64,000 nucleotides of DNA from Elephas maximus (taxonomy: Eukaryota): the NCBI RefSeq assembly GCF_024166365.1, contig NC_064841.1, positions 46,247,680 through 46,311,679 on the forward strand, read 5' to 3'. The notes under the pieces were generated by a model. The model had not been told where the DNA came from. It saw only the letters and a program-made list of their open reading frames with translations, and searched no databases. Position 1 is the stretch's first letter, and each line of letters starts with the position of its first letter. A program made the position numbers and the translations under genes. Positions 1 to 56,894 of this stretch are shown here, piece after piece.

Positions 1-1936
1 CATCCCATTGCCTTCTTGCCTGTATGGTTTCTGCTGAGTAGTCTGAACTTATTCTTATTGATTCTCCCTTGAAGAAGACCTTTCTTTTATCCCTGGCTGC
101 TTTTAAAATTTTCTCTTTATCTTTGGTTTTGGCAAGTTTGATGATAATATGTCTTGGTGTTTTTCTTTTTGGATCAATCTTAAATGGGGTTCGATGAGCA
201 TCTTGGATAGATATCCTTTCATCTTTCACGATGTCAGGGAAGTTTTCTGCCAGCAGATCTTCAACTATTCTCTCTGTGTTTTCTGTTTTCCCTCCCCATT
301 CTGGGACTCCAATCACATGCAAGTTATCCTTCTTGATAGAGTCCCACATAATTCTTAGGGTTTCTTCATTTTTTTAATTTCTTTTATCTGATTTTTTTTT
401 CCGGCTATATTGGTGTTAATTCCCTGGTCCTCCCGATTTCCCAGTCTGCATTCTAATTGCTTGAGTCTGCTCCTCTGACTTCCTATTGAGTTGTCTAATT
501 CTGTAATTTTATGTTAATCTTTTGGATTTCTGAATGCTGTCTCTGTATGGATTCTTGCAACTTATTAATTTTTCCACTATGTTCTTGAATAATCTTTTTG
601 ATTTCTTCAACTGCTTTATCAGTGTGTTCCTTGGCTTTTTCTGTAGCTTGCCTTATTTCATTTCTGAGGTCATCCCTGATGCATTGAAGCATTCTGTAAA
701 TTAGTTTTTTATATTCTGTATCTGATAATTCCAGGATTGTATGTTCATTTTGGGAAAGATTTTGATTCTCTAGTTTGGGGGGTTGTAGAAGCAGTCATAG
801 TCTGCTTCTTTATATGGTTTGATATCAACTGCTGTCTCCGAGCCATCACTAACATACTGTAGTGATTTATTCTATATTTGCTCACTGAGTCTTATCTTGT
901 TTTGTTTTCTTTCAATATACGTAGATGGGCTACTGGATTGCGCTGTCTTGATTGTTGTAGCCCTTGAATCACTTATGACCTATTACCAGCTGGTTTGGGC
1001 TGTTACCAGATATATATGCCTGAGTCCATTCACTATTCTTGAGTAGAATCTGATTTTGGGTCATCAAGTGTGTGATGCAGACTGTCACCTATCCACCTAG
1101 AGAAGTAGTGGTGAGAGTTGTGTGCACCAGATTCTACTAGCAGCTGGGGTTCACACTCTGGGGGGGGCAGGATGCTGACAGGCTTCCCCCAATGTCAGTG
1201 AGGTAGGTGTGTCTCTATTCCTAAAGCACCTTAGTGGGTGGGCTCTGCAGGTGTACCTTAGGCCCCCAATGCAAGTACCTCTACAGATTGGTAGGTGTCA
1301 CCCTCCTTAGACCCCTAAGGCAGGGTGCTAGGTGGTCTGGGGGGAGCTTCAGCCCTCAGTTCCCTGTTGTGGGTCAGTGAGGTCTCTGTTGAATATGCAG
1401 AGATATCAGACCTGGGAAACTTGTTTTTCCAGTAAATCCGCTAAAACAATTGCAGTCAGATCCCTATCAGAAATGCCTTTGCATTATAATAGCCACCTTG
1501 TTCCCTGTAGGGATGAAAGCCGGAGACTGTGGATCACACATGCTTGGCTGGAGCTGGTTCTGTGTTTTTAGTCCAAGTAGGGAAGGATTTTTGGTCCCTG
1601 GGTTTTTTGTGGTTGCTTCTCTCAGGCCAGAAGAATGGGCTAGGAAAAGACCAAAAAAAAAAAAGGAAAAGAAAAACCACGGAGCAGTTCTCCCTCTGGC
1701 TCAGGAAATTCCAATGTTAATGAAGCCGCCTGGGAAAGGGAGGGGAGGGTTCAGAAAAACAGCAGAGAGTAGCACCCCGGAATATAAACAAAGTTACTTA
1801 TCTTGCTTGGGATGACTGTTTTATCTGAGATTCCCGAGGGGCACGTCGACTGTGTGTGCTGGCTGGGTAGAGATTGCCCCCGAGGGTCAGGCCCGAGTCC
1901 ATTGCTTGTGCTGTCTCAGAAGCCGCAGTTAGTTCC

Positions 1937-2497
1937 TCTGCTCCCAGTCCAAAGCCCAGCGTCAAGGTTTCCCCCCGGGACGCTGCACTCCCAGCTCCAA
2001 AACCAGTCGCTGCCTCCCAGCGACCTCTCCTCCCACCAGTCGCGTCACCGCACTGCCCGCGCGGACTGGCAGGGTCCCCTCCCCATGCACACTGGCTGGG
2101 CTTCCCCGAGTTCAGTTCAGGGGGCTGGGGCTGCTCCCCGTGTTTGCACTGTCACAGGATGTCGTGCTCAGGTCCCCTGCACCGAGTCCAAAGCCCCAGG
2201 CCAAGTTTCCCTGGCTGGGAAGCCGCACTCCTGGCTCCAAAACCAGTCGCTGCCTCCCGGCGACCTCTCCTCCCACCAGCTGTATCGCCCTGCTGCTCGC
2301 GCGGAGTGGCTGGGCCCCCTCCCGAGGTCAGTTCAGGGGGGTAGGGCTGTGCCCCATGTTTGTGCCGTCACAGGATGCCGTGCTCAGCTCCCCTGCACCC
2401 AGTCCAAAGCCTGGCGCCAAGGTTTCCTGACTGGGACGCTGGCTCCAGGCTCCAAAAACAGTTGTTGCTTCCCCGTGGTTGTTCATTCTCAGTCTCT
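1937..2497 (-). repeat. CpG-rich tandem monomers (~220-240 bp, ~2.4 copies) inside the L1 5'UTR
   Basis: Direct repeats 1937-2180, 2181-2398 and 2399-2497 share CCAGTCCAAAGCC...GGCTCCAAAACCAGTCGCTGCCTCCC...GTCACAGGATG. They are locally CpG-rich (CCGCGCGG). This is the promoter-monomer architecture known from mouse L1. Confidence 0.6.
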
Positions 2498-2627
2498 GTT
2501 ACTCAGGTCAACTCTTTAAATCTGTGTTTGTTGGTCATGGTTCGTAAATTGTCATGTATGTGATCGATTCACTTGTTTTTCCGAGTCTTCGTTGCAAGAG
2601 GGATCCGAGATAGCGTCTAGCTAGTCA

Positions 2628-2640
2628 GCCATCTTGGCCC
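2628..2640 (-). promoter_or_regulatory. YY1-type initiator motif (rc GCCAAGATGGC) at the L1 5' terminus
   Basis: Identical core to the YY1 site at the start of the human L1 5'UTR (GGAGCCAAGATGGCCG). It recurs at the 5' ends of the other two complete L1s here. Confidence 0.4.
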
Positions 2641-2966
2641 TGCTGATGTCAATTCTTTATTTCACCAGTTTGTCTAGTTAAAGTAGGACCAACCAACCAG
2701 CTTCTTTGTACTTCTCATTATGACAAAACTGTAGAAAGGTATCACACATGTATTCACCCAGATCCCTGGCTTTCACCAATACCTGATCTATTGGTGGTGA
2801 TATTTTGTGTATTTGTATTGCCACCTCATGCCATGGATTAGCAGTGCCTTCTTTACTACTGGAGGCAGAGTCATCATCTTTAAGACTAACTGAATTTGAG
2901 AACCAATTTGGAAAAGTCATCCTTACAATTTGTTTCCTTAGAACAACTCTTGGTACCAAATGTCTT

Positions 2967-5761: not shown

Positions 5762-5855
5762 CCCTTAGAAGCAAAACCAGTTTCAGCTATAAATATATAT
5801 ACAGACAGAGAAATTTATATAAATGAAATGGGTCACACAGTTGTAGAGGCTGCAG
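5762..5855 (+). repeat. Second, partial copy of repeat R (first ~95 bp), same orientation as 2967-3075
   Basis: TGTCTTAGGCCCTTAGAAGCAAAACCAGT...ATAAATATATATACAGACAGAGAAATTTATATAAATGAAATGGGTCACACAGTTGTAGAGGCTGC is ~75% identical to 2967-3075. It is truncated where satellite A begins. Confidence 0.45.
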
Positions 5856-30957: not shown

Positions 30958-32889
30958 AGTGCTCCCAGAATCATCCATGTTGTGAGATGCTTCGCAGACT
31001 CATCATTGTTCTTTATGGTTGAGTAGTACTCCATTGTGTGTATGTTCCACAGTTTGTTTATCCATTCATTTGTTCATGGGCATCTAGGAGGTTGCTATCT
31101 TTTGCTATTGTGAACAAGGCCGCAATGAACATGGGTGGCATATGTCTATTTGTGTGATGGCTCTTATTTCTCTAAGATACATTCCTAGGCTGAAGGATTC
31201 CTGGATCATACGATATTTCTATTTCTAGCTTTCTAAGAAAGCAACATACAGTTTTCCAAAATGGCTGTACCATTTTCCATTCCCACCAGCAGTGCTCAAG
31301 AGTTCCAGTCTCCCTGCAGCCTCTCCAACATTTGTATTTCCTGTTTTTTTGATTCGTGCCAGTAATGCTGGGGTGAGATGGTATCTCATTGTGGTTTTGA
31401 TTTGCATTTCTCTAATGGCTGGTGATCACAAGCATTTCCTCATGTGTCTGCTAGCCACTTGAATGTCTTCTTTGATGAAGCGTCTGTTCATTTCCTTTGC
31501 TCGTTCTTTAACTGGATTACTTGTCTTTTTCTTCTAGAGCTGTCAGATTTTCTTGTAGATTTTAGAGACTAGACCTTTGTTGAATTTCTAGTAGCCAAAA
31601 TTTTTTCTCAGTATGTAGGTTCTCTTTTTACTCTTTTGGTGAAGTCTTTTGATGAGCATAAGTGTTTAATTTTTAGAATATCCTAGTTATCTAGCTTATC
31701 TCCTGGAGTTTTTGTGTGGTTAGTTATGGTTTGTATCTTGTCAGTGCAGTGTATCAGGGCCTCTGGCTTTAATTCTAATTTTTCTTCTGTAATCATTAGA
31801 GTTTTTGGTTTTGTACTTAGGTCTTTGATCCAACTTGAATTAGTTTTTTTGTATGTTGTGAGGAATCGGTCCTGTTTTCATTTTTTTACAGATGAACGTG
31901 CAGTTTTGCCAAGCACCATTTGTTAAGAACACTGTCTTTTTCCCATGTGATGGATTTTGGCCCCTTGTGACGATCAGGTGACCAAAGGTGGATGGGTACA
32001 TCTGGGTTCTCAATTAGGTTCCATTGGTCAGTGTAACTGCCATTGTGCCAGTACCAGGATGTTTTGACTACTGCAGCTGTACAGCAGGTTCTGAGGTCAA
32101 GTAGTCTGAGTCCTCCTACATTATTCTTCTTCAAAAATGCTTTACTTATCCATGGCCTCTTTCCTTTCCATATAAGGTTAAAAATTGTTTTTTCCATCTC
32201 TTCAAAGACAGTTGTTGGTATTTTGATTGGGATTGCATTGTATTTGTAATTGCTTTGGGTAGAATTGTCATTTTTACAATGTTGAGTCTCCCTGTCCATG
32301 AGCATGGCATGTTTTTCAATTTACATAAATCTCTTTGGGTTTCTTGCAGTAGTGTTTTGTAGTTTTCTTTGTAAAGATCTTTTACATCCCTGGTTATATT
32401 TATTTCTAAGTATTTTATTTTGGGGGGGTATTATTTTTTTTATTATTATGGTATAATATGGTATTATTTTCTGATGTTCTCTTTGTAGTTCTCTGTATTG
32501 GTTTATAGGAATTCAACTGACTTTTGTATGTTTACCTTGTACTCTGCTACTCTGCTGAGTCTTTTTAATACCTCCAGTAAATTTCTAGTAGAGTCTTTTG
32601 GGTTTTTGTATGTGTAGTATCATATCATCTGCAAATAGGGACAGTTTTACTTCTTCAGTACCCGTTTGGATGCTCTTTATTTCTTTTTCTTGCCTTACTG
32701 CTCTAACCAGGACTTCCAGCACAATGTTAAATAGGAGTGGTGATAAAGGGCATCCTTGTCTTGTTCCTGTTCTCAAGGGGAATGTTTTCAGTCTCGCTCC
32801 ATTAAGAATGATGTTAGCCATTGTATAGACACCCTTTATTATGTTGAGGAATTTACTGGGATTTGGTTTGTTTGTTTTGGCTGTGAATC
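30958..32889 (-). mobile_element. Older L1, ORF2 fragment A (RT region to ORF2 end, no 3'UTR)
   Basis: Minus ORFs: 32585-32821 [37 protein letters not shown]...[11 protein letters not shown] (RT); 31886-32305; 31225-31407 [23 protein letters not shown]...[11 protein letters not shown]; 30846-31034 MEYYSTIKNNDESAKHLTTWM. Confidence 0.75.
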
Positions 32890-33908
32890 TTTTTTAATTG
32901 AACTTTAGATGAAGGTTTACAGAACAAACTAGTTTCTCATCAAACAGTACACACATTGTTGTAAGACATTGGCTAACAAACCCACAACTTGTCAACACTC
33001 TCTCTTCTCGACCCTGGTTCACTATTACCTGCTTTCGTGTTCCATCCTGCCTTCCAGTCCATGCCCTAGGGCTGGTGTGCCCCTTTAGTCTTGTTTTGTT
33101 ATATGGGCCTGTTCAATCTTTGGCTGAAGGGTGAACCTCAGGAGTGACCTCATTACAGAGCTGAAAGGTTGTCCAGGAGCCATACGCTCAGGATGTCTCC
33201 AGTCTCTGTCAGGCCAGCAAATCTGGTCTTTCTTTTTGAGTTAGAATTTGGTTCTACATTTTTCTCCAGCTCTGTCAGGGACCCTGTAAGTGGTGGTAGC
33301 TGGGCACCATCTACTTGTACTGGACTCAGTCTGATGGGGTCCACGGTAGATGTGGTCCATTGGTCCTTTGGATTAATCTTTCACTTGTGTCTTTAGTTTT
33401 CTCCATTCTTCCTTGCTCCCGAAGGGATGAGACCAGTGGAATATCCTAGATGGTGGCTCACAGGCTTTTAAGACTCCAGACTACTCACCAAAGTAGAATG
33501 TAGAACATTTTCTTTATAAACTATGTTATGACAGTTGAGCTAGATGTTCCCCAAGACCATGGTCCCCACAGTCCTCAGCCCAGCAAGTCGGTCCCTCAGG
33601 GAGTTTGGATGTGTCTATGTAGCTATCATGACCTTGCCTTGCACAAGTTGTGTTGGCTTCCCCAGTATTGTGCACTGTCTTTCTCTTCACCAAAGTTGCC
33701 ACCTATCTATTGTCTATTTAGAGTTTGTCCATTCAACCCCTCCACAGGGATCCCTGGTAACCATCAAAGATTGTTTCTTTTTTTGTGTAAAACTTTTCAT
33801 GAGTTTTTACAGTAATGGTCTCATAAAATATTTATCCTTTTGTGATTGACTTATTTCACTCAGAATAATGTCCTCCAGATTTATCCATATTATGAGATGC
33901 ATCACAGA

Positions 33909-36900
33909 TTAGTCGTTCTTTATAGTTGCATAATACTCCATTGTATGTATGTACCACAGTTCGTTTACCCATTCTTCTGTTGATGGACATCTAGATTGTT
34001 TCCATCTTTTTGCTATTGTGAGCAATGCTGCAATGAACAGGGATGTGCATATATCTCTTCGTGTGACTACTTTTATTTCTTTAGGATATATTCCTAGAAC
34101 TGGGATTGCTGGATCATGTGGTATTTCTGTTTCTAACTTTCTAAGGAAGTGCCATATCATTTTCCAAAATGGTTGCATCATTTTGCAGTCTCACCAGCAG
34201 TCCGTAAGAGTTCTGATCTCCCCACAGCCTCTCTAACATTTATTATTTTCTGTTTTATTGATTCATGCCAGTAATGCCAGGGTGAGATAGTATCTCATGG
34301 TGGTTTTGATTTGCGTTTCTCTAATGGCTAGAGATCGTGAGCATTTCCTCATGTGTCTGTTGGCCACTTGAATGTCTTCTTTGGTGAAGTGTCTGTTTGT
34401 TTCCTTTGTCCATTTTTTAATTGGATTATTTGTGTTTTTGTTGTAGAGGTTTTGAATTTTCTTGTAGATTTTAGAGATTATACTTTTGTCTGATTTGTAA
34501 TAGCCAGATTTTTTTCCTAGTCTGTAGCTTCTCTTTTTACTCTTTTGGTGAGATCTTTTGATGAGCGTGTTTAATTTTTAGAAAATCCCAATTATGTACC
34601 TTATCCTCTGTAGCTTGTGTGTTGTTCGTTGTAGTTTGTATCCTGTTAATGGTGTATATTAGGGCCTCTACCTTTGATCCTATTTTTTTCATCTATGAGC
34701 TTCATAGTTTTTGACTTTATATTTAGGTCTTTGATCCATTTTGAGTTAGTTTTTATATATGCTGTGAGGTATGGGTCCTGTTTCATATTTTTGCTGATTG
34801 GCATCCAGTTTTGCCAGCGCCATTTGTTAAAAAGACTGTCTTTTCTCCATTTAATGGACTTTGGGCCCTTGTCGAAGATCAAGTGGCCATAGGTGGGGGG
34901 ATTTACATCTGGGCTCTCAATTCTGTTCCATTGGTCAATGTATCTGTCGTTATACCACTAGCAGGCTGTTTTGACTACTGTAGCTGTACAGTATGTTCTG
35001 AGGTCACATAGTGCAAGTCCTTCTACTTTGTTCTTCTTCAATAGTGCTTTATTTATCTGGGGCTCTTCCCTTTCCATGTAAAGTTAATGATAAGTTTTTA
35101 CCATCTCTTTAAAGAATGTTGTTACTTGGATCGGTATTGCATTGTATTTGTAAATCGCTTTGGGTAGAATTTCCACACTGTTGAGTCTACCTTTCCATGA
35201 GCATGATAAGTTTTTCCATTTATGTAGATCTCTTTTGGTTTCTTGCAGTCGTGTTTTGTAGTTTTTTTTTTTTTTTTTTTGTATAGGTCTTTTACATCCC
35301 TGGTTAGATATACTCCCAAATATTTTATTTTTTTAAGGGCTATTATAAATGATATTGTTTTCCTGATTTCTTTTTCATTGTTCTCTTTATTAGTGTATAG
35401 GAATCCAACTGATATTTTATGTTTACCTTGTATTCTGCAACTCTACTGAATCTTTCTATTAGTTCCAGTAGTTTTCTCATGGAGTCTTTTGGGTTTTGTA
35501 TGTGTAGTGTCATATCATCCACAAATAGGGAGAGTTTAACTTCTTCATTACCAATTTGGATGTCCATTATTTCTGTTTTTTGCCTTACTGCACTAGCTAG
35601 GACTTCCAGCACAATGTTAAATAGGAGTGGTGATAAAGGGCATCCTTGTCTTTTTCCTGTTCTCAAGGGGAATGTGTTCAGCCTCTCTCCATTAAGAATG
35701 ATATGCCACTTGTTTTGCACAGACACTGTTTATTATGTTGAAAAATTTCCCTTCTATACATATTTTATTGAGAGTTTTTATAAGGAATGGTTGTTGGACT
35801 TTGTGGATGCCTTTTCTGCATCAGTTGAGTTGATCATGTGATTCTTTTCTTTCCTTTTATTTATGTGGTGGATTACGTTGATTGATTTTCTAATGTTGAG
35901 CCATCCTTGCATACCTGGTATGAATCTTACATGGTCACAGCGTATTATTTTTTTTGATATGTTGCTGAATTTTATTGGCTAGAATTTTGTTGAGAATTTT
36001 TGCACCTATATTCATGAGAGATAATTGGTCTGTAACTCTTTTTTTGTGGCGTCTTTGCCTGGTTTTGGTGTCAGAGTTATGCTGACTTCATAGAATGTTT
36101 TTGGAAGTATCGCTTCCTTTTCTGTGTTCTGAAACAGTTTAAGTAGTACTGCTGTAAGCTCTTCTCTGAATGTTTGGTATAATTCTCCAACGAAGCCATC
36201 TGGGCCAGGGCTTTTTTTGGTTGGGATTTTTTTTTATTACCTTTTCTACCTCTTCTCTTGTTATGGGTCTGTACAGATTTTCAACATCATTTTGTGTTAA
36301 TTTGGGTAGGTAGTAGTTTTTTGTTTTTTTTTTAGTGTGTCTCTAGAAATTTGTCCATTTCCTCTAGGTTTTCAAATTTGTTGGAGTATTGTTTTTCATA
36401 ATACTCTGTCATGATCCTTTTTATTTCAGTGGGGTCTGTTGTAATATCTGCCATTTCATTTCTTATGTGGGTTATTTGTATTCTTTCAAAGCACCAACTT
36501 CTGGTTTTGTTGGCTCTTTCTATTGTTTTTCTATTCTCTATTTCATTTATTTCTGCTCTGACCTTTATTATTTCCTTTATTCTGGTGGCTGTGGGCTTCT
36601 TTTACTGTTCTCTTTCTATTTGTTCAAGTTGTGTAGACTATGTTTTGATGTTGTCTCTTCTTTTGTGATGTGTGCATCTATTGCTATAAATTGACCCCCG
36701 AGGACTGCCTTTGCTGTGTCCCAAAGGTTTTGGTGTGATGTGTTTTCATTCTCATTTGATTCTAAGAATTTTTTTTTAATTCCATCTTTGATTTCTTCTA
36801 TTACCCTGTGGTTTTTAAGCAGGATGTTATTCAGTTTCCATGTAATTGATTCTTTTTTCTTCATTCTTCCTGTTGTTAAATTTCTACTTTGATGGCATTG

Positions 36901-37601
36901 TGGCCAGGGAAGGTACTTAGTATTATCTCACTGTTTTGGATTTTGTTGAGGGTTGCTCTGTGGCCTAAAATGTGGTCTGGTCTGGAGAATGTTCAGTGCT
37001 TTGGAAAAGAACATGTACTTTTCAGTCGTTGGGTGGAATGTTTTATATATGTCTATGATTTTTTTTTTTTTTTATGATGTCAAGTTGGCTTACTGTGCTT
37101 TTTAGCTCTTCTGTATCTTTGTTGAGTTTCTTTGTAGATGTCTTGTCCTTTACTGGGAGTGGTGTGTTGAAGCTTCCCACTGTTATTGTAGAACTGTCAA
37201 TTTCTCTTTTCAGTGCTGTTAGTTTTATGTATTTTGGAGCCCTGTTTTTGTCATTTGGTGCATAGATGTTTATTATGGTTAAGTCTTCATGATAGATCAT
37301 CCCTTTAATCATTATATAATGCCCTTCTTTGTCTTTTATGGTGGATTTTGTTTAAAGTCTATTTTATCTGAGATTAGTATTGCCACTCCTGCTTTTTTTG
37401 GTAGTTATTTGCTTGATTTTTTTTCAACCCTTTAATTTTTAATAAATTTATGTCTTTGTTTCTAAGGTGTGTCTCTTGTAGACAGCATATTGATGGATCC
37501 TGGTTTTTTATCCATTCTGTCACTCTGTGTCTCTTTATGGGCACATTTAGGCCCTTTACATTCAGTGTAATTATTGATAGGTGTGAGTTTATTGCTGCCA
37601 T
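33909..37601 (-). pseudogene. L1 ORF2 (endonuclease + reverse transcriptase) remnants of the full-length minus-strand L1
   Basis: Six-frame pieces 37374-37601 (LSIITLNVKGLNVPIKRHRVTEWIKNQDPSICCLQETHL), 37043-37312, 36616-36864, 35343-35726, 34646-34882 and 33909-34181 lie in the correct order but in different frames. Confidence 0.8.
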
Positions 37602-37903
37602 TTTGTAGCACTTTTTTTTGTGGTGTTAACATTTTCTTTATTCCTCTTACTCTCCTCTGCTGAGTTTCTTTTTTGGGGATTTCTTTTGTTTTTGTAGATT
37701 TTGTTTTTATTGAGACTTTATGTTTTTCTTCTTTATTTGGTGAGTAGGTTTGTTAACTCTCTTTGTGGTTACCTTGAAATTTATCCTTATTTTCCTATGT
37801 TTGAACCAGTCTATTATTACTTGGTATCGCCCTGCCTTCTTCTCCATTAGGAAGTTCTATACCTATACTGTTTATTCCCTCTTTTATTGTTCTGATGTTG
37901 TTG

Positions 37904-39131
37904 TTATTTACAGATTAACCTCTCTGGTTCCCTGTTGCAATTGTTTTTGTTTGGATAGTCCTTGAGAGTACATTTACTAGGTTGGTATCTGGCTGGTAAA
38001 ATTTTGCATCCTAGATTCAGGCTGTGGTCTGATGTTGTTTGTTCTCCTTTTAATAATTCTTGTAAATTTGGTATGGTTTTTACATATTCCCTCAATTTTT
38101 GTTTATCTGGAAATGTCCTTATTTCACCATCATATTTGAATGAAAGTTTTGCAGGATATATTATTCTTGGTTGGCAATTTTTTTCTTTCAAGGTTTTGTA
38201 TATGTCATCCCATTGCCTTCTTGCCTGCAGTGTTTCTGCCAAATAGTCAGAGCTTAGTCTTATTGTTTCTCCTCTGTATGTGACTTTTTGTTTTCCTTGA
38301 GCTGCTCTCAGGATTTTTCTTTGTCTTTGGTTTAGCAACTGTGATTATGATATACCTTGGTGTTTTTCTTTTGGGGTCTATCTTATATGGGGTTCATTGA
38401 GCTTCTTGGGTGGTCAGCTTTTCATCTTTCATGATATTAGGGACGTTTTCTGTCGACAATTCTTCAGTGATCCTCTCTGTGTTTTCTGTTTTCTCTCCCT
38501 GCTCTGGGCCACCAATCACTCACAAATTTTTCCTTTTGATTGTATCCCACGTAATTCTCAGGGTTTCTTCATTTGTCTTCATTCTTTTTTCTGATTTCTC
38601 CTCAAACAGAGTTGTATCCAACTGTTTGTCCTCCACTTTGCTGATCCTTTCTTACATCATTTCAAACCTGCCCTTCAGTCCTTTGATGACATTGTCCATT
38701 TCTGAAATCTCGTTGTTTATGCTTTGGATGTCTAATTGTTTTTGTATTATTTCTAGTGTGAATTTATTTTGGCATTTTTTTTCCTGAATTCTTCCATTTT
38801 TTAATCATTTTTTCCATGAATATTTCTGCCTTTTCTGTAAATTTGTCTATTTTTTTCCCTCATTTTTGCCTGCTTTTTGCTTTACCTCTTGGATTACTCT
38901 GAATATTAGAGATTTGAATTCCCTGTCAGGTAGTCCCAGTGTGTTTTCTTCTACTGGAAGGTCATCTGGTGTTTTATTTTGGACACCTGCTGGAACCATC
39001 CTGTCCTTTTTTTTAAAATATGTTTTTATATTGTCTGTTGTCTCTGGGACATTCAGTAGTTGTTCATTCATTGATTGTAGATTTGTTTGTTTCACCCTGC
39101 TTTTTTGTTTTATCTTGTTATGTCTGAGCAA
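37904..39131 (-). pseudogene. L1 ORF1 remnants (C-terminal RRM/CTD region and N-terminal coiled-coil)
   Basis: ORFs 37904-38338 and 38847-39131 (...KKKDRMVPAGVQNKTPDDLPVEENTLGLPDREFKSLIFRVIQEVKQK); antisense to the + strand ORFs 38397-38787. Confidence 0.75.
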
Positions 39132-39559
39132 GCAGATTGTGCATTCTTTGTTGTTTGCTCATCTGTAATCACAGTACTTTTCAACTCCTTTTCCAATGGG
39201 CAGGGCCAGTCACTCAGCTATGGGTCAGCTGAAAAGGAGGGGCTGGGATGGGTTGTTTGTGGCACCTGCTAGGGCAGACAGGGTGGGCCAGGAATCAGTG
39301 CTCGGCAGGTTCCGGTAGGCCATGTCCATGCTGCTCAGGGGTGTGATGTTCCACGCAAGGTGCAGTTAGGCAGGAAAGGGGGAAGTTTGTAATGTGTGGA
39401 GCTAATTGGGGTATGGAAAGAGGAGAGAGGATAGAGAAACAAGAGCCAAAAACAAACAAAGGAAAAAAATGAAGAGCACTAAGGGAGCTTTCCATTGGAG
39501 TGGGGAGATGAGAAACCAAGAAAAGCCGAAAGGTAAAATCGTGGAAAAAATGAAAAAGA

Positions 39560-40530
39560 AAAAATAACTAGATAAAAATTTGGAAAAGATAGGAAAAAAA
39601 AGTCCCCAGGAGTCCCACCAGTGGGTCCAGGAAGGCTTGGGAAGTGGCTCCCAGTCTGCACAGTATAGGCTTGCTAGAGGGGTATAGATGTCACACAGCA
39701 CTGGGTATCCAGGAGACAGGAAAAGAAGCTAAGTATAAAGAGGTGAGAACTGAGAAATGAAGAAAGATAGAAAGGGAAAAATAGAAAAGAAAGAAAAAGA
39801 GAAATGCCCCCAGAGATCCCAGCTACATGGCTGCACAGATTGGTGAACTGGCTCCTAAGCCATGCAGTGCAGCTTGGCTAAAAGAGTCTCCCAAGCCATG
39901 AAAAGAAAGAGAAAACAAGAGAAGGGGGGTAAATCCCCAGGGATTCCACTAGTGTGGTGTCCTGGGCCAGGGGAGTGGTTCCCTAGTCAAGCCGGGCTTC
40001 ACAGTCTTTCAAGAGGAAGCAAAGATGGCACACAGAACAAGGTGCTCAAGGGAGGAGGTGGATGTGCTGGGAGGAATGCGAGAAACCAAAAGAAATGGAA
40101 AAAACCAACACCAGCTCAGGGGGCTGCCCAGTGTGGGCAGGGTGAATCCAAGTGGCCTGAGGCCAAAGCAGTTGCCTCCCGGCCAAGAGACTGCAGCATG
40201 TGGGAACAGAGGAGGCCAAAGCGAGGAGGTGAAGAAGGGTGGGAGTTAGGAAAGCATATATCACTCATTACCAGGTGCTCTGTCTCCTGCTGGGAACTTT
40301 GTGAAGCTGCTTTCCCATACTCCCTGTCTGCTGATCGCTGATGTGAGTGGGGTGAATCCAAGCGGCATGGACACTACACTTCCCAGCTGATTGAGCCACC
40401 ACAGCAAGCCAGGAAGCTCAGAGGTAGAGCAGCAGGGAGAGGAGGGGGTGAGAAAGCATGTATCACTGGTTACCAGGTGCTTTGTCTACTGCTGGGAGCT
40501 CCACGAAGCTGCTTTCCTGTGCTGCCTGTC
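39560..40530 (-). repeat. Tandem monomers in the L1 5'UTR (three ~100-110-bp units 39590-40010; ~90-bp pair 40250-40340 / 40440-40530)
   Basis: Repeated AAAGTCCCCAGGAGTCCCACCAGTGGGTCCAGGAAGGCTTGGGAAGTGGCTCCCAGTCTGCACAG, ATGCCCCCAGAGATCCCAGCTACATGGCTGCACAGATTGGTGAACTGGCTCC and AATCCCCAGGGATTCCACTAGTGTGGTGTCCTGGGCCAGGGGAGTGGTTCCC. Second pair: (A/G)AAAGCATATATCACT(C/G)(A/G)TTACCAGGTGCT(C/T)TGTCT(C/A)CTGCTGGGA(A/G)CT. Confidence 0.5.
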
Positions 40531-40769
40531 CACCTATCCCCGATAGGAGTCTGAGATGGCAGATCCTTCCTGTGTTAGCTGATAGGGGCCCTCCACACGT
40601 ATCTCTCCTTGCTCTCTGTCCTCTGTCAGTTTCTTATTCCATTCAGTGTTTGGGTGAGTTCTTTATGTCTTCATTTGACACTTCAGGTTCCAGGAATGAC
40701 GTTTGTCTGTTTTACTTAGTTTATGGGGTCTTTGTTGTGGAGGGACGGCCTATTGTTTCTGTCTTTGGT

Positions 40770-40781
40770 GCCATTTTGGCC
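40770..40781 (-). promoter_or_regulatory. YY1-like motif (rc GGCCAAAATGGC) at the 5' terminus of the full-length minus-strand L1
   Basis: Positional homologue of the motifs at 2628-2640 and 48683-48693. It overlaps the putative target-site duplication, so the exact L1 5' end is ambiguous by a few bp. Confidence 0.35.
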
Positions 40782-40788
40782 TGAAGTC

Positions 40789-41708
40789 ATTATTGAGAGT
40801 TTTTATCAGGTATGTGTGTTGGACTTTGTCAAATGCCTCTTCTGCGTCAATTGAGATGATCATGTGATTCTTTTATTTATGTGGAGAATTACATTGAATA
40901 AATTTCTAATTTTGAATCATCCTTGTATACCTGCTATGAATCCTACTTTGTCGTGGTGTATTTTTTGTGATATAATTCTGAATTCTATTGGCTAGAATTG
41001 TGTTGACAATTTTTGCATCTATATTCTTTAGAGATATTGGTCTCTAATTCTCTTCTTTCATGGTGTCTTTGCTTAGTTTTGGTATTAGGGTTTTGCTGGC
41101 TTCATAGAGTGAATTCAAAAGTATCCCTTCCTTTTCTATGTTATGAAAGAGTTTCAGTAGTGCTGGTGTAAGCTCTTCTCTAAATAATTCAGAGAATTCT
41201 CCAGTGAAGCAATCTGGGCTGGGTTTTTTTTTGGTTGTTGTTTGGAGGTTTTTTAAATTAACTTTTTGATCTCTTCTCTAGTTATGGGTGTGTTCAGATT
41301 CTCAACATCATTTTGCATTAGTTTGGGTAGTTAGTGTGTTTCTAGAAATTTGTCTATTTCCTCTAGGTTTTCAAACTTGGTGGGGTATAGTTTTTTCATA
41401 GTACTCTGTTATGATCCTTTTTATTTCAGTTGGATCTGTTGCAATGTCACTCATTTCATTTCTTATTTGGGTTATTTGTGTCTTCTCCTATATTTCTTTT
41501 TGTCAGTTTGGCCAGTGGTTTGTCGAGTTTGTTGATCTTTTCAAAGAACCAACTTTTAGTTTTGTTGATTCTATTGTTTTTCTATTCACTATTTCATTTA
41601 CTTCTGCTCTGATCTTTATACTTTCCTTTTTTCTTTTGCTGTTCTCTTTGTATTTCCTTGAGTTATGTAGCTAATGTTTTGATTTTGTCCCTTTTTTCTT
41701 TTTTGATG
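40789..41708 (-). mobile_element. Older L1, ORF2 fragment B (region N-terminal to the RT core); continues fragment A across the nested full-length L1
   Basis: 40790-41700 is colinear with 35760-36690 of the full-length L1 at ~80% identity. Its low-coordinate end (rc ...DAEKAFDK...) and the high-coordinate end of fragment A (...TLNKLGI...YIKAIYDKPTANIILNG) are adjacent positions in L1 ORF2. Confidence 0.75.
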
Positions 41709-47997: not shown

Positions 47998-48674
47998 TTC
48001 AAATTTAGAAAACAGATTTTGGAAGGTGTTTGGGTGTCTCTGAAGAGAATCTGTAGTTGTGTCTTTAATGGAGATATAGCCTGTCCACACATATCTGTAT
48101 TTACACATATACAACCTCTTCTCACATATAAATACTCCTGCACCTACCTATATAAGTATATGCCTATACCAATATTTTATTAGTTTCCTATATATGTCAA
48201 ATTCTTTGGTACAGGCATTCTTTTCTCATGAATGTTTCTCAGCAGCATCATTTACTTTGGTTGTTCTGCACTCACTACATCCACATTCAGTGCCTCTTTT
48301 CCCATCACCAACAAGAGCATACTTCTGCCTTCATCCCTTCCCCGCCCTTGGAAACCACCATGAAAATTGGTTTCTTTATATATGTCTATTTTTGTCTTCT
48401 TATAAAAGAGAGATCATACAGTATTGGTGCTTATGTGCTTGACTTACCCACTCATCTGTCAGTTTGTTGCACTGGGGAAGTGTTGTTTCCTCAAAGTAGA
48501 GTCACTCTTAATGACATGGATGGAATAAAGCATTCAGGACCTACATTTGCTGATGTGGCATGAATCAAAATTAGAAGAAACAACTGCAAACATCTGTTTT
48601 TAATTGGAACATGGAATTTATGAAGTATGAACCTAGGAAAATTGGAAAAAATGAAAGTTGTCAAAAGTGAAATG
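47998..48674. other. Short non-satellite spacer between satellite B and the next L1
   Basis: No periodicity; contains small ORFs only (48194-48442, 48228-48563), with no recognisable domain. Confidence 0.4.
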
Positions 48675-48682
48675 GAGATGAG

Positions 48683-48693
48683 GCCAAGGTGGC
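48683..48693 (+). promoter_or_regulatory. YY1-like initiator motif GCCAAGGTGGC at the L1 5' terminus
   Basis: Within the first 20 bp of the element; same position as the motifs at 2628-2640 and 40770-40781 (both minus strand). Confidence 0.4.
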
Positions 48694-50145
48694 AGAATAG
48701 TCACACACTTCATGTCATCCCTCTAACAACAAAAAACCTGAAAAAACAAGTGAATTGGATATACGTGACAATCTAGGAACTCTAATCATCAAATACAAAA
48801 CAAAAAATCCAAATGAGTGGCAGGTAGAAAGAAAGACAATTCAAAAACAGCAGAAATAGGGAATTATGGATTGCTGGATTGCTGGTGTCCTGCTAGCTGA
48901 ATCTGCACTGCAGTCTGAAGAAAGCAGCAACATCCCAAGCTGAAAATCCACCCCATCTGGTGCAGCCAAGCAGCAGCAAATCCACGTGCACCTCCAGAAC
49001 CAAACAGGAGGGACACCAGACCTGAGGAAGTTAAGTGTAAGGTCCCAAACTACTGCATGCACGACATAACCCTACCCCTAACGGAGCTCCATGGCTGAGG
49101 GGTACTGCCTTCTCCTCGTCTATCCCCCTTCCTGCTCTAACACTAGTCCCACAATATTTAACACTGCCACACCACCTAAGCCAAGAACTCATGGCTGGGA
49201 CCAGAGGCACCCGCTCCTTGACCCAGCTACTGGCGCAGGGAGTCCACAGACTTGCAGCACCCTTCACTGCCACCAATCACCAGTGCCAGGGCCTTGCTGG
49301 CTGATTCAGCATGGCATACCCTCATTAGGAAAAAATGGGCAGCCCATCCACCTGAATCACATTTTTACATGCAGCAGCCAAGAGGGCACTGAAAATTTGT
49401 GACATTTAACACCACCTAAGAAGGGACCTCACCCACCCACACCAGGGGCCTGAGGGCCACCCACAACAGGGAACTGAGAATTAGTGGCGCCTCCCAATTC
49501 CTCCAGTCAATGGCACTGGAAGCCCAAGGACTGGCTGCAGTACCCTTTTCCAACTATGTGCTCAAGCAAACAGGCACAAGCCCTCCAGCTAGACACTTGG
49601 GAGCAGTTGTGAACCCCCTACCTTGCCCCTCACATAGCTTCCCAGCTGCAACCAGAGACCTGTGCCTGCTCCAAACTCCACACAGCTCTGCTCACCCAGG
49701 ACAGTAGGTGAGAATCTCCACACCACACACTTGGTTACTGACAATCTTGCCACCTGCACCCTGAACAATTGATAAGCATACACATAACACCCAAGCCACA
49801 TAACACCCAAACCAACAACCAGGAAGAACACCCCCTGCACCATAGGCCAGGTGAAAAGTAGGACAGATTCATCACTTCACCAAAAATCTCTGGCAACATC
49901 ATCAGCACCCCTGCAAGAACAGTGAACATACTCCCAGCCACACATGAAGTAGCTTCTGTTTTGACCACCTGGAGAGAGGAGGTGACAGTTTCAGTGATGC
50001 CAATGACCAAAGCAGCATGCACACCCAGCTTACTAGGACATAGCAAAACAAAACAAAATACAGGATGCAGTAAACAAAAATACAATAAATAAATAAAATA
50101 TAATAACATATTGATGGCTTGAAGGTAGCAAAAACAAACCATTGC

Positions 50146-50292
50146 AGTTGACTCAATTCCAACAGATAGCGACCCTAGAGGACAGAATAGGACTGTCCTA
50201 TAGGATTTCCAGGGAGCGGCTGGTGGATTTGAACTGCCAATATTTTCGTTAGCAGCGGTATCACTTCACCACTGTACCACCAGGGATAACAG
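50146..50292 (-). mobile_element. AfroSINE-like tRNA-derived SINE nested in the L1 5'UTR
   Basis: rc reads GCTGTTATCCCTGGTGGTACAGTGGTGAAGTGATACCGCTGCTAACGAAAATATTGGCAGTTCAAATCCACCAGCCGCTCCCTGGAAATCCTATAGGACAGTCCTATTCTGTCCTCTAGGGTCGCTATCTGTTGGAATTGAGTCAAC. Confidence 0.7.
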
Positions 50293-50319
50293 CTAATATC
50301 AAATCACATAAAGAAGCAG

Positions 50320-51076
50320 AACAAGATGGCTCCAGGAAGCAACCAAAATAAAGAACCAGAAAATCTTCCAGAGGAAGAAAAGGCAATAGAACTACCTGAA
50401 CAAGAATTCAAAAGACTAATAGAGATTTCATAAATATCAAGAAGGAGATCAGGCAAAACTCAGACCAAACTAAGCAACACAGAGACAAAGCAATAGAAAA
50501 TTCAGGAAAGCTATACAAGAACAAAATGACAGAACGAACAGCTTTAGAAACCATACAGAGACAGCAACTAGAAATCCAAAAGGTTAACATCAGACAACTC
50601 AATAGAAGGTCATAGAACAGAACTGAGACAATGGAAGTCAGAATCAGTAAGACTGAAGATAAATCACTTGACAACAAGTTGAGGAAAAATCAGAAAAAAG
50701 AATGAAAAAAATGAAGAAAGCCTAAGAATTATGTGGGATATTATCAAGAGAAAAGCCTATGAATGATCACAGGACCAGAACAGGGGAAGATAACAGAAAA
50801 TACAAAGAGAATTGTTGAAGATTTGCTGGCAGAAAACTTCCCTAATATTGTGAAAGATGAGAAGATATCTATCCAAGAAGCTCAATGAACCCCATATAGG
50901 ACAGACCACAAAAGAAAGTCACCAACACATATCAAAACCAAACTTGCCTAAACCAAAGGCAAAGAAAGAATCCTTAGAGTGACTAGGGATAAACAAAAAG
51001 CCACCTACAAAGGAGAACCAATAAGCCTAAGCTCTGACTACCCACCAGAAACCATGCAGGCAAGAAGGCAATGGGA

Positions 51077-51140
<64 letters not shown>

Positions 51141-51300
51141 CCTTGAAGGAAAGAAATTCCCAGCTGAGAATTATATATCCAGCAAAATTGTCTCTCAAAT
51201 ATGATGGCAAATTCCATCATTTTCAGATAAACAGAAACTAAGGGAATTTGTAAAAACCGGCCCAAGTTACAAGAAATATTAAAGAGAGGCCTTTGACTCG
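50320..51300 (+). pseudogene. L1 ORF1 remnant (internal stops; interrupted by an (AT)n microsatellite)
   Basis: MAPGSNQNKEPENLPEEEKAIELPEQEFKRLIEIS*...QARRQWDD-(AT)30-KALKERNSQLRIIYPAKLSLKYDGKFHHFQINRN*. Confidence 0.75.
51078..51137. repeat. (AT)30 microsatellite inside L1 ORF1
   Basis: Perfect AT dinucleotide run. It generates the IYIYIY ORFs on the minus strand (50983-51210, 51038-51265). Confidence 0.95.
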
Positions 51301-53216
51301 AGAACCAACAACATCAGACAACAATCCAAGACTAGGACACAGTCCAGATCAACCAGATCCTGACCCATATAGGGAATTCACAAAAATAAAACAAAGCTAA
51401 AAGACTGAAAATAAGGAATCAGAGACATAATATGTAAACAACAGAATCATCAAAACAAAAAAGATGGAATAAAGAGTATAGTCATAGAACTGCCATAAGG
51501 AGAGGAAGTCAAGACAATATCAAGAAATAAAATACTGGTTTAAACTTAGGAAAATAAAGGTAAATTTTAAGCTACCCATCAAAATTCAAAAAAAAAAAAA
51601 ACTCAGCAAACACAAAATCAACAATAATGAAAATAAAATATATAAAGAAAAACATATCAGCACAAAAAAATTAAGTGGAAAAAAGAAACTGTCAAAACCA
51701 CAAAAAAAAAAAAGACAGCAGTAAACTCATACCTATCAATAACTACAGTGAATGCAAATGGACTAAATGCACCAATAAAGAGACAGAGAGTGGTAGAATG
51801 GATTAGAAAAAAAACACAATCCATCTATATGCTGCCTACGAGAGACACGCCTTACACTGAAAGACACAAACAAAAACTCAAATAATGGAAAAAAATTTAT
51901 CAAGCAAACAACAACCGAAAAAGAGCAGAAGTAGCAATATCAATCTCTGACAAAATAGACTTTAAACAAAATCCACCACAAAGGATAAGGAAGGAAACTA
52001 TACAATGATTAAAGTGTCAGTACACCAGGAGGACATAACCATAGTAAATAGGTATGCACCCAATGAAAAGGCTCCAAAATACATAAAGCAAACTGACAGC
52101 ATTGAAAAGAGAAATACACTTCTCCACAATAATAGTAGGAGACTCCAATACACCACTTTGGTGAAGGACAGAACATCTAGAAAGAAACTTAGTAAAGATA
52201 CAGAAGATCTAAATGCCACAATCAATTTGATCTTGTAGACATATACAGAACACTCCACCCAACAGCAACCAAGTACACATTATTTTCCAACACTCATGGA
52301 ACATTCTCAAGAATAGAATAGACCACATATTAGGCCATAAAGCTACCCTTAACAGAATCCAAAACATTGAAATATTACAAAGCATCTTCTCTGCTCATAA
52401 TACCATAGAAGTAGAAACTAATAACAAAAACAGCAAGAAAAAAAATTGAATATATGAAAACTGAGCAACACCTTGCTTAAAAACTACTGAGTGATAGAAG
52501 AAATCAAGGATGGAATTTAAAAATTTATAGAATCAAATGAAAATGAAAACACATCTTACCAAGTTCTTTAGACATGGCAAAAGCAGTCCTTAGAGGCAGA
52601 TTTATAACAATAAACACACACACCAAAAAAGAAGAAATGGCCAAAATCAAGACATTAATGCTACAACTTGAACAAATAGAAAGAGAGCAGCAAAAGAAGC
52701 ACTCAGGCACCAGAAAAAAGGAAATAATAAAAATCAGAGCAGAAAAAATGCAATAGAGAACAGAAAAACAATTGAAAGAATCAACAAAACTGAAAGCTGG
52801 TTCTTTGAAAAGATCAACAAAATTGACAAATCATTGGCCAAACTGACAAAAAAAAAAAAAAAAACAGGAGAGGAAGAAAATAACCCAAATAAAAAAAGAG
52901 ATGGGCAATATCACAACAGACCCAACTGAAGTAAAAAGCATTGTAACAGAATATTATGAAAAATTGTACTCCAACAAATTTGAAAACATAGAGGAAAAGG
53001 GCAAATTTCTAGAAACTCACTACATACCTAATTAACACAAAATGAGGTAGAAAAACTAAACATAACAAAAGAAGAGATTGAAGAGGTAATAAGAAAAAAA
53101 AAAAACTCCCAACAAAATAAAGCCCTGGTCAGCTTCACTGGAGAATTCTACCAAACTTTCAGAGAAGAGCTAACACCAATACTACTCAAACTTTTTCAGA
53201 GCATAGGAAAGGAAGG

Positions 53217-53973
<757 letters not shown>

Positions 53974-54153
53974 TAGAAAACCAGTCAACATAATCCACCA
54001 CATCAATAAAACATAAGAACCACATGACCTTATCAATCAACAGAGAAAAGGCATTTGACAAAATCTAACTCCCATTACAGGTAAAAACTCTTAACAAAAT
54101 AGGAATAGATGGGAAATCCCTTGACATAATAAAGAGTGTCTACACAAAACCAG

Positions 54154-54320
54154 AAAAACCCTGGTGGCATAGTGGTTAAGAGCCATGACTGCTAACCAAA
54201 AGGTCAGCTGTTCGAATCCACCAGGCGCTCCTTGGAAACCCTATGGGGAAGTTCTACTCTGTTCTCTAGGGTTGCTATGAGTCGGAATCAACTTGATGGC
54301 AATGGGGTTTTTTTTGGTTT
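54154..54320 (+). mobile_element. AfroSINE, first of a tandem pair
   Basis: AAAAACCCTGGTGGCATAGTGGTTAAGAGCCATGACTGCTAACCAAAAGGTCAGCTGTTCGAATCCACCAGGCGCTCCTTGGAAACCCTATGGGGAAGTTCTACTCTGTTCTCTAGGGTTGCTATGAGTCGGAATCAACTTGATGGCAATGGGG(T)n. Confidence 0.85.
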
Positions 54321-54332
54321 ATACAAAACCAG

Positions 54333-54500
54333 GAAACCCTGTTGGAGTAGTGGTTAAGAGCTACAACTGCTAACCAAAATGTCAGCAGTTTGAATCCACC
54401 AGGCACTCCTTGGAAACTCTATGGGGCAGTTCTACTCTATCCTATAGGGTAGCTATGAGTCAGAATTGATTCAACAGCAATGGGTTTGGTTTTGGTTTTT
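54333..54500 (+). mobile_element. AfroSINE, second of the tandem pair
   Basis: GAAACCCTGTTGGAGTAGTGGTTAAGAGCTACAACTGCTAACCAAAATGTCAGCAGTTTGAATCCACCAGGCACTCCTTGGAAACTCTATGGGGCAGTTCTACTCTATCCTATAGGGTAGCTATGAGTCAGAATTGATTCAACAGCAATGGG. Confidence 0.85.
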
Positions 54501-56894
54501 ATACAAAACCAACAGCGAATATCATTCTAAATTGAGAGAGACAAAACTTTCCCCTTGAGAAGGGAAACCAGACGAGGATGCCTTTAAAACCATTCTTATT
54601 CAGTATTGTGCTGGAAGTCCTAGCTAGAGCAATAAGGCAAGAAAAAAAAAAAGGCATCCAAACTGATGAAGAAGAGGTAAAATTATCCCTATTCAGAGAT
54701 GATATGATCTTATACAGAGAAAACCCCAAAGAATCCACAAGAAAGTTACTGGAACTAACAAAAGATTTCAGCCAAGTACCATGATAAAAGATTAACATAC
54801 AAAAATCAGTTGGATTCCTCAACACCAAAAAGAAAACTTCAAAAATCACCAATTCAATACCATTTACAATAGCCCCCAAGATGATAAAGTACTTAGAAAT
54901 AAATCTAACCAGCTTCATAAAAGACATATACAAAGAAAACAATAAAACTGTACTGCAAGAGACCAAAAGAGATCTACATAATTGGAAAAACATGCCATGA
55001 TTGTGTATTGGAAGACTGAACATTGTGAAAATGTCAATTCTACCCAAAGTGATCTACAGACACAATGCAATACTGATCCCAATTCCAACTGTACTCTTTA
55101 ATGAGATGGAGAAGCAAATCACCAACTTTATATGGAAAGAGAAGAGGCCCTGGGTAAGTAAACCATTACTGAAGATGAACAAAGTGGGAGGCTTCACATT
55201 ACCTTCCTTTAGGACCTATAATACAGCCACAGTAGTCAAAACAGCCTAGTACTGATACAACAGACCAATGGAACAGAATAGAGAACTTGGAGGTAAATCC
55301 ATCCATATATAAGCAGTTGATATTTGACAAAGGGCCAAAGTCAGTTAAGTGGGGAAGACAGTCTCTTTAATAAATGGTGCCAGCATAACTGGGTATCCAC
55401 CTGCAAAAAAGTGAACAAGATCCATACCTCACACTGTACACAAAAACTAACTCAAAATACTTCAAAGACCTAAATATAAACTGATAAAGATCATGGAAGA
55501 AAAAATAGGGACAAGGCTATGGGCCATAACACATGGAATAAATAGTATATAAGCCATAACTAACAATGCACAAACACCAGAAGATAAACTAGATAACTGG
55601 GAGCTCCTAAAAATTAAATATTTATGCTCATCAAAATACTTCACCAAAAGAGTAAAAAAAGAACCTACAGAATGGGAAAAATTTTGGGCTACAGCACATC
55701 CAACAAGGGTATAATCTTTAAAATCTAGAAAATGCTTCAACACCTCAATAACGAAAAGACAAGCTGATTTAAAACTGGGCAAATGATCATTATGCTGAGT
55801 GAAATTAGTCAGTCGCAAAAGGACAGATATTGTATAACACCACTATGATAAGAACTGGAGAAATAAACAGAGAAGAAAATATTCTTTGATGGTTACAAGA
55901 AGGGGGAGGGAGGGAGGGAGAGGGGTATTCACTTATTAGATAGTAGATAAGTTTTTAATTTTAGGTGAAGGGAAAGACAACACACAATACAGGAGAGGTC
56001 AACACAAGTGGACTAAACCAAAAGCAAAGAAGTTTCCTGAATAAACTGAACTCCTCATAGGCCAGCATAGGGGTGGGGGTTTGGGGACCATGGTTTCAGG
56101 GTCCATCTAAGTCAATTGGCATAATAAAATCTATTAAGAAAACATTCTGCATTCCACTTTGGAGAGTGGCATCTGGGGTCTTAAAAGCTAGCAAGCATCC
56201 AAGATGCATCAATTGGCCTTAACCCACCTAGAGCAAGAAAGAATGAAGAACACCAAAGACACAAGGTAATTATGAGCCTAAGAGACAGAAAGGACCACTT
56301 AAACCAGAGGCTACGTCTGCCTGAGACCAGAAGAACTAGACGGTGCCCAGCCACAACCTATGGCTGCGCAGACAGGGAACTTAACAGAGAACCCCTGAGG
56401 GAGCAAGAGAGCAGTGGGGTGCAGACCCCAAATTCTAGTGAAAAGACAAGACTTAATGGTCAGACTGGGACTACAAGGACCCCGGAGGCCATGGTCCCCA
56501 GACCTTCTGTTAGCCCAAAACAGGAGTCATTCCCAAAGCCTACTCTTCAGACAGGGATTGGACTGGAATATGGGATGGAAAATGATACTGGTGAAGAACG
56601 AGCTTCTTGGATCAAGTAGACACATGAGACTATGTTGCATCTTCTGTTTCGAGGGGAGGTAAGAGGGCAGAGGAGGCCAGAAGCTACCCAAATGGACACA
56701 AGGAGAGAGAGTGGAGGGGTGAACTGTGCTATCTCATTAGAGGGAGAGCAATTAGGAGTGTATGGCAAGGTGTTGTAAATTTTTGTAAGAGAGTGACCTG
56801 ATTTGTAAGTGAAATTTAAAGCACAATAAAAACTAAATTTAAAAAAAAAAAAAAGAATGAAAGGGGACATCACTGCAGATCCCACGGGCACTGA

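Follow-up and report, generated by a model that had tools for sequence, protein, structure and literature searches.

In the AAV P5 promoter, a YY1-dependent initiator, the transcription start is set without a TATA box by a YY1 site located at +1 or immediately downstream of it. The concept is the same for L1 retrotransposons, with the differences that P5 is a viral promoter, that its site has another orientation and spacing, and that no retrotransposon life cycle is involved. The promoters of mouse L1s (A, Gf and Tf) are built of monomers, each of which contains a YY1 site. The human L1 box near the 5' end is bound by YY1, and accurate initiation depends on it, according to Becker 1993 and Athanikar 2004 as cited in PMC5381506, PMC8535693 and PMC5860796. 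The review PMC8535693, citing Athanikar 2004, describes the YY1 site as the most conserved in L1s and as needed for proper initiation; the same review also gives it a role in methylation-based repression. Boissinot & Sookdeo 2016 (PMC5381506) assembled full-length L1s of 14 mammals, among them elephant, hyrax, armadillo and opossum. A terminal YY1 box was present in nearly all of them, opossum too, and the pan-mammalian L1 5' consensus was given as G2-6(A/C)G2AGNCAAGATGGCGGA. The exceptions were mouse and rat, whose L1s have no terminal box and still retrotranspose. The same study reported that 5'UTRs are frequently replaced, and that there are tandem duplications in elephant and hyrax 5'UTRs. 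Conservation of the box across mammals, elephant and hyrax included, was thus already published in 2016. It is at least 100 Myr old and predates the Afrotheria split; because opossum has the box too, ~100 Myr is if anything an underestimate. An earlier note on the DNA described here had argued for ~100 Myr of conservation from three L1 copies. The survey of 14 mammals came to the same conclusion (PMC5381506), so the claim is sound and was known already. For elephant and hyrax, the survey has in effect supplied the genome-wide check of L1 5' ends that the note proposed.

The window, by which we mean the whole 64-kb stretch of DNA analysed, has the composition of mammalian DNA (39% GC, CpG observed/expected 0.22) and is rich in LINE fragments; over 20 kb of it is satellite built of ~345-bp units. 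L1s were mapped by tblastn with human ORF1p and ORF2p as queries. The query ORFs come from what we take to be the L1HS sequence, in which both are intact (338 and 1275 aa). Its 5' end agrees from nt 7 with the published primer "L1.3 5'UTR 7-99 Sense GGAGCCAAGATGGCCGAATAGGAACAGCT" (PMC5860796), which serves as a check on the human sequence and its numbering. In the 64-kb window, 5' ends are present for three L1s, here called L1-A, L1-B and L1-D (Table 1), and Pfam finds Transposase_22 (PF02994), RVT_1 (PF00078) and Exo_endo_phos (PF03372) in translated L1 fragments. The ORFs of all three are full of stops and frameshifts, and the elements are therefore old fossils. ORF1-ORF2 spacers of ~355-365 nt and 3'UTRs of ~930-960 nt fit elephant L1, for which a long spacer and a 994-bp 3'UTR are reported (PMC5381506). 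Together with an AfroSINE-like SINE (Table 1), this architecture makes an Afrotherian source plausible. We consider it highly probable that L1-A, L1-B and L1-D preserve the fossil 5' termini of three different, long-dead, Afrotheria-like L1 subfamilies. The earlier note had counted three complete L1s. This is correct for L1-B and L1-D, which are full-length, but L1-A is incomplete in the window, since its ORF1 passes off position 1 at the left edge.

Table 1. Positions of the three L1 elements, their 5' features and neighbouring repeats in the window.
Feature	Position	Strand	Remarks
L1-A	1..2651	-	5'UTR ~1.85 kb and N-terminal two thirds of ORF1 (Pfam Transposase_22)
Probable first 13 nt of L1-A, TGACATCAGCAGG	2639..2651	-	upstream of box
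L1-A terminal YY1-type box GCCAAGATGGC	2628..2638	-	sole exact match in window
L1-A extended block GCCAAGATGGCTGACTAG	rc 2638-2621	-	box plus continuation
L1-A leader block GAAAAACAAGTGAAT	2567..2581	-	common to L1-D; 57 nt downstream of box start
L1-A 5'UTR tandem monomers	1903..2473	-	~66% GC; 2473-2259, 2258-2019, partial 2018-1903
L1-B	32853..40789	-	full-length fossil, ~7.9 kb; 5'UTR ~1.8 kb; ORF1 ~38996-37958; spacer ~355 nt; ORF2 37601-~33800; 3'UTR ~930 nt
L1-B terminal box GCCAAAATGGC	40770..40780	-	1 mismatch, AANATGGC core intact
L1-B ORF2 start context CAAAATGGCAGC	37594-37605	-	
L1-D target-site duplication, 5' copy TTGTCAAAAGTGAAATGGAGAT	48658..48679	+	
L1-D	48680..58893	+	full-length fossil, ~10.2 kb including later insertions (SINE 50129-50285; SINE dimer 54144-54511; other repeats ~55693-57342)
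L1-D terminal box GCCAAGGTGGC	48683..48693	+	A-to-G change destroys ATGG/CCAT core
L1-D extended block GCCAAGGTGGCAGAATAG	48683-48700	+	
L1-D leader block AAAAAACAAGTGAAT	48741..48755	+	58 nt downstream of box start
L1-D ORF1 start context CAAGATGGCTCC	50322-50333	+	
(TA)n microsatellite in L1-D ORF1	51081-51138		~58 bp
L1-D target-site duplication, 3' copy TTGTAGAAAAATGAAATGAGAT	58894..58915	+	
LINE fragments, presumably RTE/BovB-like	~48560-48679, 58894-59400, ~56900-57340		
ORFs antisense to L1-A and L1-B 5'UTR bodies	1803-2519, 1874-2344, 39862-40341	+	156-238 aa
tRNA-derived SINE copies	54144-54511, 50129-50285, 23326-23479		core GGTTAAGAGC...GCTAACCAAAAGGTC.GCAGTTCGAATCCACCAG
Satellite arrays	5855-8563, 8565-16646, 23880-26712, 41706-47800		unit ~345 bp

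Two of the 5' ends, those of L1-B and L1-D, are set independently by older repeats that these elements interrupt. L1-B is nested in an older L1 ORF2, whose homology ends at 40790 (…AAAACTCTCAATAA) and restarts at ~32847-32852. Given the host break at 40790, L1-B starts TGACTTCAGGCCAAAATGGC, with GCC at +10; its box therefore begins at element nt +10, which is the register of human L1.3. At this junction (40790/32847-32852), ~18-23 nt of the host ORF2 are lost, and there is no significant target-site duplication around L1-B. This pattern points to deletion at the target site, or to heavy decay, and not to a standard duplication. L1-D splits an RTE-like LINE and is flanked by a 22-nt target-site duplication, the score of which was reached in 0 of 1000 shuffles. 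This duplication places the L1-D start at 48680, or as far as 5 nt upstream (48675) should GAGAT be microhomology at the junction. The insertion point, and thus the source of the duplication, is the endonuclease N-terminus of the interrupted LINE, which we take to be RTE/BovB-like from its protein motifs, as we do the fragment at ~56900-57340. Within L1-D, ORF2 is interrupted by an RTE/BovB-like piece and an L1 3'-end fragment (55788-56854, 76% to 27775-28841), and the microsatellite in ORF1 is a local expansion. For L1-A, BLAST homology to L1-D begins at the box itself. The 13 nt that precede the L1-A box are similar to the 9 nt with which L1-B begins (TGACTTCAG), as is the L1-A upstream sequence TGACATCAG. 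The exact L1-A terminus is probably 2651; its 3' end is beyond the window, as any target-site duplication would be. The host break of L1-B, the target-site duplication of L1-D and the homology between L1-A and L1-D from the box onward bear out the earlier placement of the shared block at true L1 5' termini.

At all three 5' ends there are GCCAAGATGGC-like boxes in sense orientation, starting at +4 to +14 of the elements and lying 4-23 nt from the L1 termini. The strings quoted in the earlier note were all located, in sense orientation, although the coordinates needed adjustment for two of them: GAGATGAGGCCAAGGTGGCAGAATAG lies exactly at 48675-48700, CAGCAGGGCCAAGATGGCTGACTAG corresponds to rc 2645-2621, of which the range given covers 18 of 25 nt, and CTTCAGGCCAAAATGGCACC is present at rc 40786-40767, not at 40770-40788. 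With at most one mismatch, GCCAAGATGGC has nine matches in the window, where 0.81 are expected. Three are the L1 termini, two (27036 and 36195) fall in the conserved "PGPDG" codons of ORF2, and the other four are not L1 5' ends, three of these having been judged in context and the fourth by location; this fourth match (40019-40029) is on the antisense strand of the L1-B 5'UTR. A longer probe is the 18-mer GCCAAGATGGCNGAATAG, which represents nt 10-27 of human L1.3 and has 17 specified bases. L1-A and L1-D each match it at 16 of these 17, with one mismatch, and a search of both strands (128 kb) found only these two sites. Similarity to the human 5'UTR ends after ~20 nt. It follows from these matches that the core had rightly been equated with the human L1 YY1 site. 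The description of the three blocks as near-identical holds less well: the box is exact only in L1-A, whereas L1-B is more diverged (13/18 identical to the human block) and L1-D has lost the ATGG core.

Could three A-rich sequences resemble each other in this way by chance? Chance would account for the lack of enrichment of the short YY1 core in the window. It would leave unexplained the excess of 11-mer matches, three of them sense-oriented and close to L1 termini, and the restriction of the 18-mer to the termini of L1-A and L1-D. On these grounds, and because of the target-site duplication of L1-D, chance was rejected, and we regard it as extremely improbable. A second alternative is that Afrotherian and primate L1s gained the box convergently, as opposed to inheriting it continuously for ~100 Myr. 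YY1 sites are short and readily evolved, any L1 promoter benefits from a YY1 initiator, and 5'UTRs are often replaced (PMC5381506). Convergence would, however, have to reproduce a 16/17 match to human that includes GAATAG, outside the YY1 core, and an equal register, with the box at +10 in both L1-B and L1.3; one consensus in nearly all sampled mammals, including opossum (PMC5381506), also speaks against it. Hence, independent gain is very unlikely.

The likeness to human L1 extends beyond the core. The human L1.3/L1HS box (nt ~+12 to +20), GCCAAGATGGCCGAATAG, is matched in core and extension by the extended blocks of L1-A and L1-D. As in human L1, the box is in sense orientation, its register from the first nucleotide is equal in L1-B, and the GC-rich 5'UTR downstream of it is otherwise unrelated. 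There are also differences. Unlike in human L1, the first 9-13 nt of the window copies are not G-rich, and an A-rich leader of ~150 nt, dissimilar to the human 5'UTR, comes after the box. Moreover, the window copies are mutated fossils, for which no present function is claimed.

Motif scores are a poorer guide than position. Scoring here means matching to published YY1 consensus forms, not a PWM. The form CAAGATGGC (YY1 core AANATGGC / CCATNTT) is matched 9/9 by L1-A, 8/9 by L1-B (CAAAATGGC), with the core intact, and 8/9 by L1-D (CAAGGTGGC), with the core broken by one transition. In the window as a whole, AANATGGC is not enriched (12 matches versus 10.2 expected). The 12-mer CAAGATGGCGGC with at most two mismatches picks out L1-A alone among the boxes, tied with six unrelated sites, while L1-B and L1-D have three mismatches, no better than background. 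The expectation that YY1 scores at these sites would exceed background was thus not borne out. The tied sites include ORF1 and ORF2 start-codon contexts, and since these score equally, motif score alone is not discriminating. Two such contexts, at L1-D ORF1 and L1-B ORF2 (Table 1), fit the YY1 12-mer as well as the terminal boxes do. The arguments for a putative L1 YY1 box are its position and orientation, its register and the match over 18 nt. Judged by these features of the sequence, the 5' block of L1-A, L1-B and L1-D is very probably the pan-mammalian L1 terminal YY1 box.

Like the pan-mammalian consensus (PMC5381506), the window copies carry, at their extreme 5' ends, CAAGATGGC and then (C)GGA-type sequence. 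Where the consensus reads GGCGGA, they have TGA, AGA and ACC variants, as expected from CpG decay. After GGC, the CpG has lost its G in three of three copies, which through decay have T (L1-A) or A (L1-D and L1-B) there. T and A after GGC are both products of CpG deamination, and the consensus has GGCGGA; the ancestral sequence was therefore presumably GCCAAGATGGCGGAATAG, with …GGTGGCAGA… and …AAAATGGCACC… as its decayed variants, and the GGC(T/A)GA forms would be compatible with decay of GGCGGA. A further departure from the consensus is upstream: the G-run (G2-6) of the extended form ...AGNCAAGATGGCGGA is missing, the copies reading TGACTTCAG (L1-B), TGACATCAGCAGG (L1-A) and GAG there. The published consensus derives from young, recently active families (PMC5381506), whereas the window copies belong to older, diverged subfamilies. 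A present-day putative YY1 binding site is credible in L1-A only. Decay of the boxes is compatible with neutral evolution after insertion, and conservation concerns the active source lineages, not the L1-A, L1-B and L1-D copies, all of which are dead.

What would such a box do for an L1? The RNA polymerase II promoter of an L1 is understood to sit inside its own 5'UTR, and transcription would have to begin at the very first nucleotide, or new copies would lose promoter sequence. In the proposed mechanism, YY1 would bind the box (GCCATCTTG on the antisense strand) at ~+12 to +20, and the bound YY1 would direct transcription to start roughly twelve nucleotides further upstream, at nt +1 of the element. 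With the box at the extreme 5' end, a lineage would then yield full-length, promoter-competent progeny, which would explain why the box and the ~150-nt leader survive while the GC-rich body is swapped. After insertion, neutral decay would set in, with the CpG of GGCGGA turning into TG in L1-A and into CA in L1-D and L1-B, and L1-D would additionally have lost its ATGG core. Beyond the observed sequence and orientation of the boxes, their position at mapped termini, their homology to the human box and the non-homology of the UTR bodies, we infer by analogy that YY1 binding and +1 initiation took place in the Afrotherian source elements, with somewhat less confidence than we attach to the identity of the box. 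The promoters of these source elements most likely worked as in human L1. The implications are threefold. First, a YY1 box explains how successive generations of copies can each retain a whole promoter although it is part of the transcript. Second, persistence of the box through repeated 5'UTR replacement is textbook selection on a selfish element, and is published for mammals. Third, the window adds a small illustration, in which three older subfamilies at one locus have the same box and a common leader.

The terminal block may also have been kept for a reason other than YY1, with the YY1 match partly incidental. It could be an RNA or cDNA element on which the completion of reverse transcription or second-strand synthesis depends, act in RNP packaging or cap-proximal translation control, or bind another factor. 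Such roles would fit the observation that conservation exceeds the YY1 footprint, with GAATAG common to human, and that the leader is common to the three local subfamilies. An essential role in RNA or cDNA is hard to reconcile with mouse and rat L1s, which retrotranspose without the box (PMC5381506), and there is no sign of RNA structure in the window. In addition, YY1 binding to the human box, and a need for the box in accurate initiation, are described by Becker 1993 and Athanikar 2004, as cited in the papers named above. Taken jointly, the non-YY1 options are unlikely, and retention for YY1-directed initiation is the preferred reading.

Downstream of the box, the three copies first agree and then diverge completely. 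The leader of ~150 nt common to L1-A, L1-B and L1-D is A-rich and contains the box, ATCCCTC, AAAAACAAGTGAAT and GACAAT... The AAAAACAAGTGAAT block was correctly noticed before in two copies; in L1-A and L1-D, it comes 57-58 nt after the box. Counted from the box start, identity over nt 0-30 is 22/30 for L1-A and L1-D (z 7.7), 19/30 for L1-B and L1-D (z 4.0) and 18/30 for L1-A and L1-B (z 3.7). Over nt 30-150, the corresponding z values are 17, 5.5 and 1.8, and from nt 150 to ~1500 there is no similarity in any pair. BLAST among the three copies likewise gives no match between ~+150 and the ORF1-proximal part. The ORFs of L1-B and L1-D are nonetheless ~73% identical. Unalignable bodies downstream of a common box and leader thus indicate three subfamilies with unrelated GC-rich UTR bodies. 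Non-homologous UTR bodies, like the elephant-type long intergenic spacer and ~1-kb 3'UTR, agree with the published survey (PMC5381506). The module retained in Afrotherian L1s may be larger than the YY1 box and include the A-rich leader, a possibility that we put forward tentatively and consider less likely than not to hold. If true, 5'UTR turnover would consist of exchanging the body behind a constant "initiator-leader" cassette, and the leader could carry extra start-site or RNA-level signals undescribed in other mammals. The presence of this leader across subfamilies with unrelated UTR bodies is the sole mildly new element of the locus, and a genome-wide survey of the leader could modestly refine models of how L1s acquire new 5'UTRs.

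How were the bodies replaced? The earlier note attributed replacement to lineage-specific monomers, which is true of one copy out of the three. L1-A has ~2.5 tandem units of 215-240 bp with pairwise identities of 75-77%; they are evident in BLAST self-alignment, and TRF makes no call of them. The L1-B 5'UTR has one 79-bp duplication at a spacing of ~200 bp, but the L1-D 5'UTR has neither tandem monomers nor a duplication. The mismatch of the bodies beyond ~+150 would therefore fit 5'UTR turnover in general, not specifically turnover by monomers. The L1-A unit is also longer than the 70-100 bp motifs reported in the survey of 14 mammals (PMC5381506). L1-A resembles mouse L1 in having tandem GC-rich units of ~200 bp in its 5'UTR. 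Unlike in mouse L1, the YY1 box is single and terminal, outside the monomers, and the YY1 core AANATGGC is absent from them (1903-2473); mouse and rat L1s are without a terminal box.

Searches outside the window were made in metagenome and genome contigs, collections essentially without Afrotherian DNA, and a pattern of box plus leader block had no match there. A motif-independent leader pattern gave two chance matches in genome contigs, in genuine prokaryotic DNA. The 18-mer GCCAAGATGGCGGAATAG occurs at 30 loci in metagenomes. Most of these (27 of 30) are prokaryote-like, having no L1 protein match and being for the most part GC-rich without CpG depletion; the other three represent a single primate L1 locus, in which the box is again at the L1 start. 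A protein search with the L1-A ORF1 fragment, in collections likewise essentially devoid of Afrotherian DNA, returned only short contaminant contigs. The best match was a 97-aa "hypothetical protein" (P0004), 80% identical and with a Transposase_22 domain, on a 322-bp contig of Pseudomonas sp. MOB-449. This contig almost certainly reflects contamination of a bacterial assembly by mammalian (Afrotheria-like) DNA. Three longer contigs from other mammals (L003-L005) carry pieces of ORF1, upstream of which there is no box on the sense strand; the L1 starts in them are undefinable, and the copies are probably truncated or old. Literature text searches for the box sequence had no relevant match.

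Several other features of the window were recorded. The ORFs on the + strand of the L1-A and L1-B 5'UTRs were rejected as genes: they are antisense and lie in GC-rich or T-rich, stop-poor stretches, and are thus explained by composition. L1-D has the tRNA-derived SINE twice, as a head-to-tail dimer in ORF2 and as an antisense copy in the 5'UTR; a third copy lies at 23326-23479. At gathering thresholds, Rfam has no match in the window, the SINE included, and literature text searches for the SINE core had no relevant match. From the copies at 54144-54511, we take the SINE to be AfroSINE-like. The ~345-bp satellite arrays were considered as L1 monomers and rejected, as they lie outside the three elements and their 5'UTRs. 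The first three arrays are related, with 66-73% identity between arrays, and the second shows a higher-order periodicity at ~80% identity. The fourth, in inverted orientation, is only weakly related to them. Two of the arrays directly abut 5'-truncated L1 ORF2 fragments, at 26709 (+) and 41704 (-).
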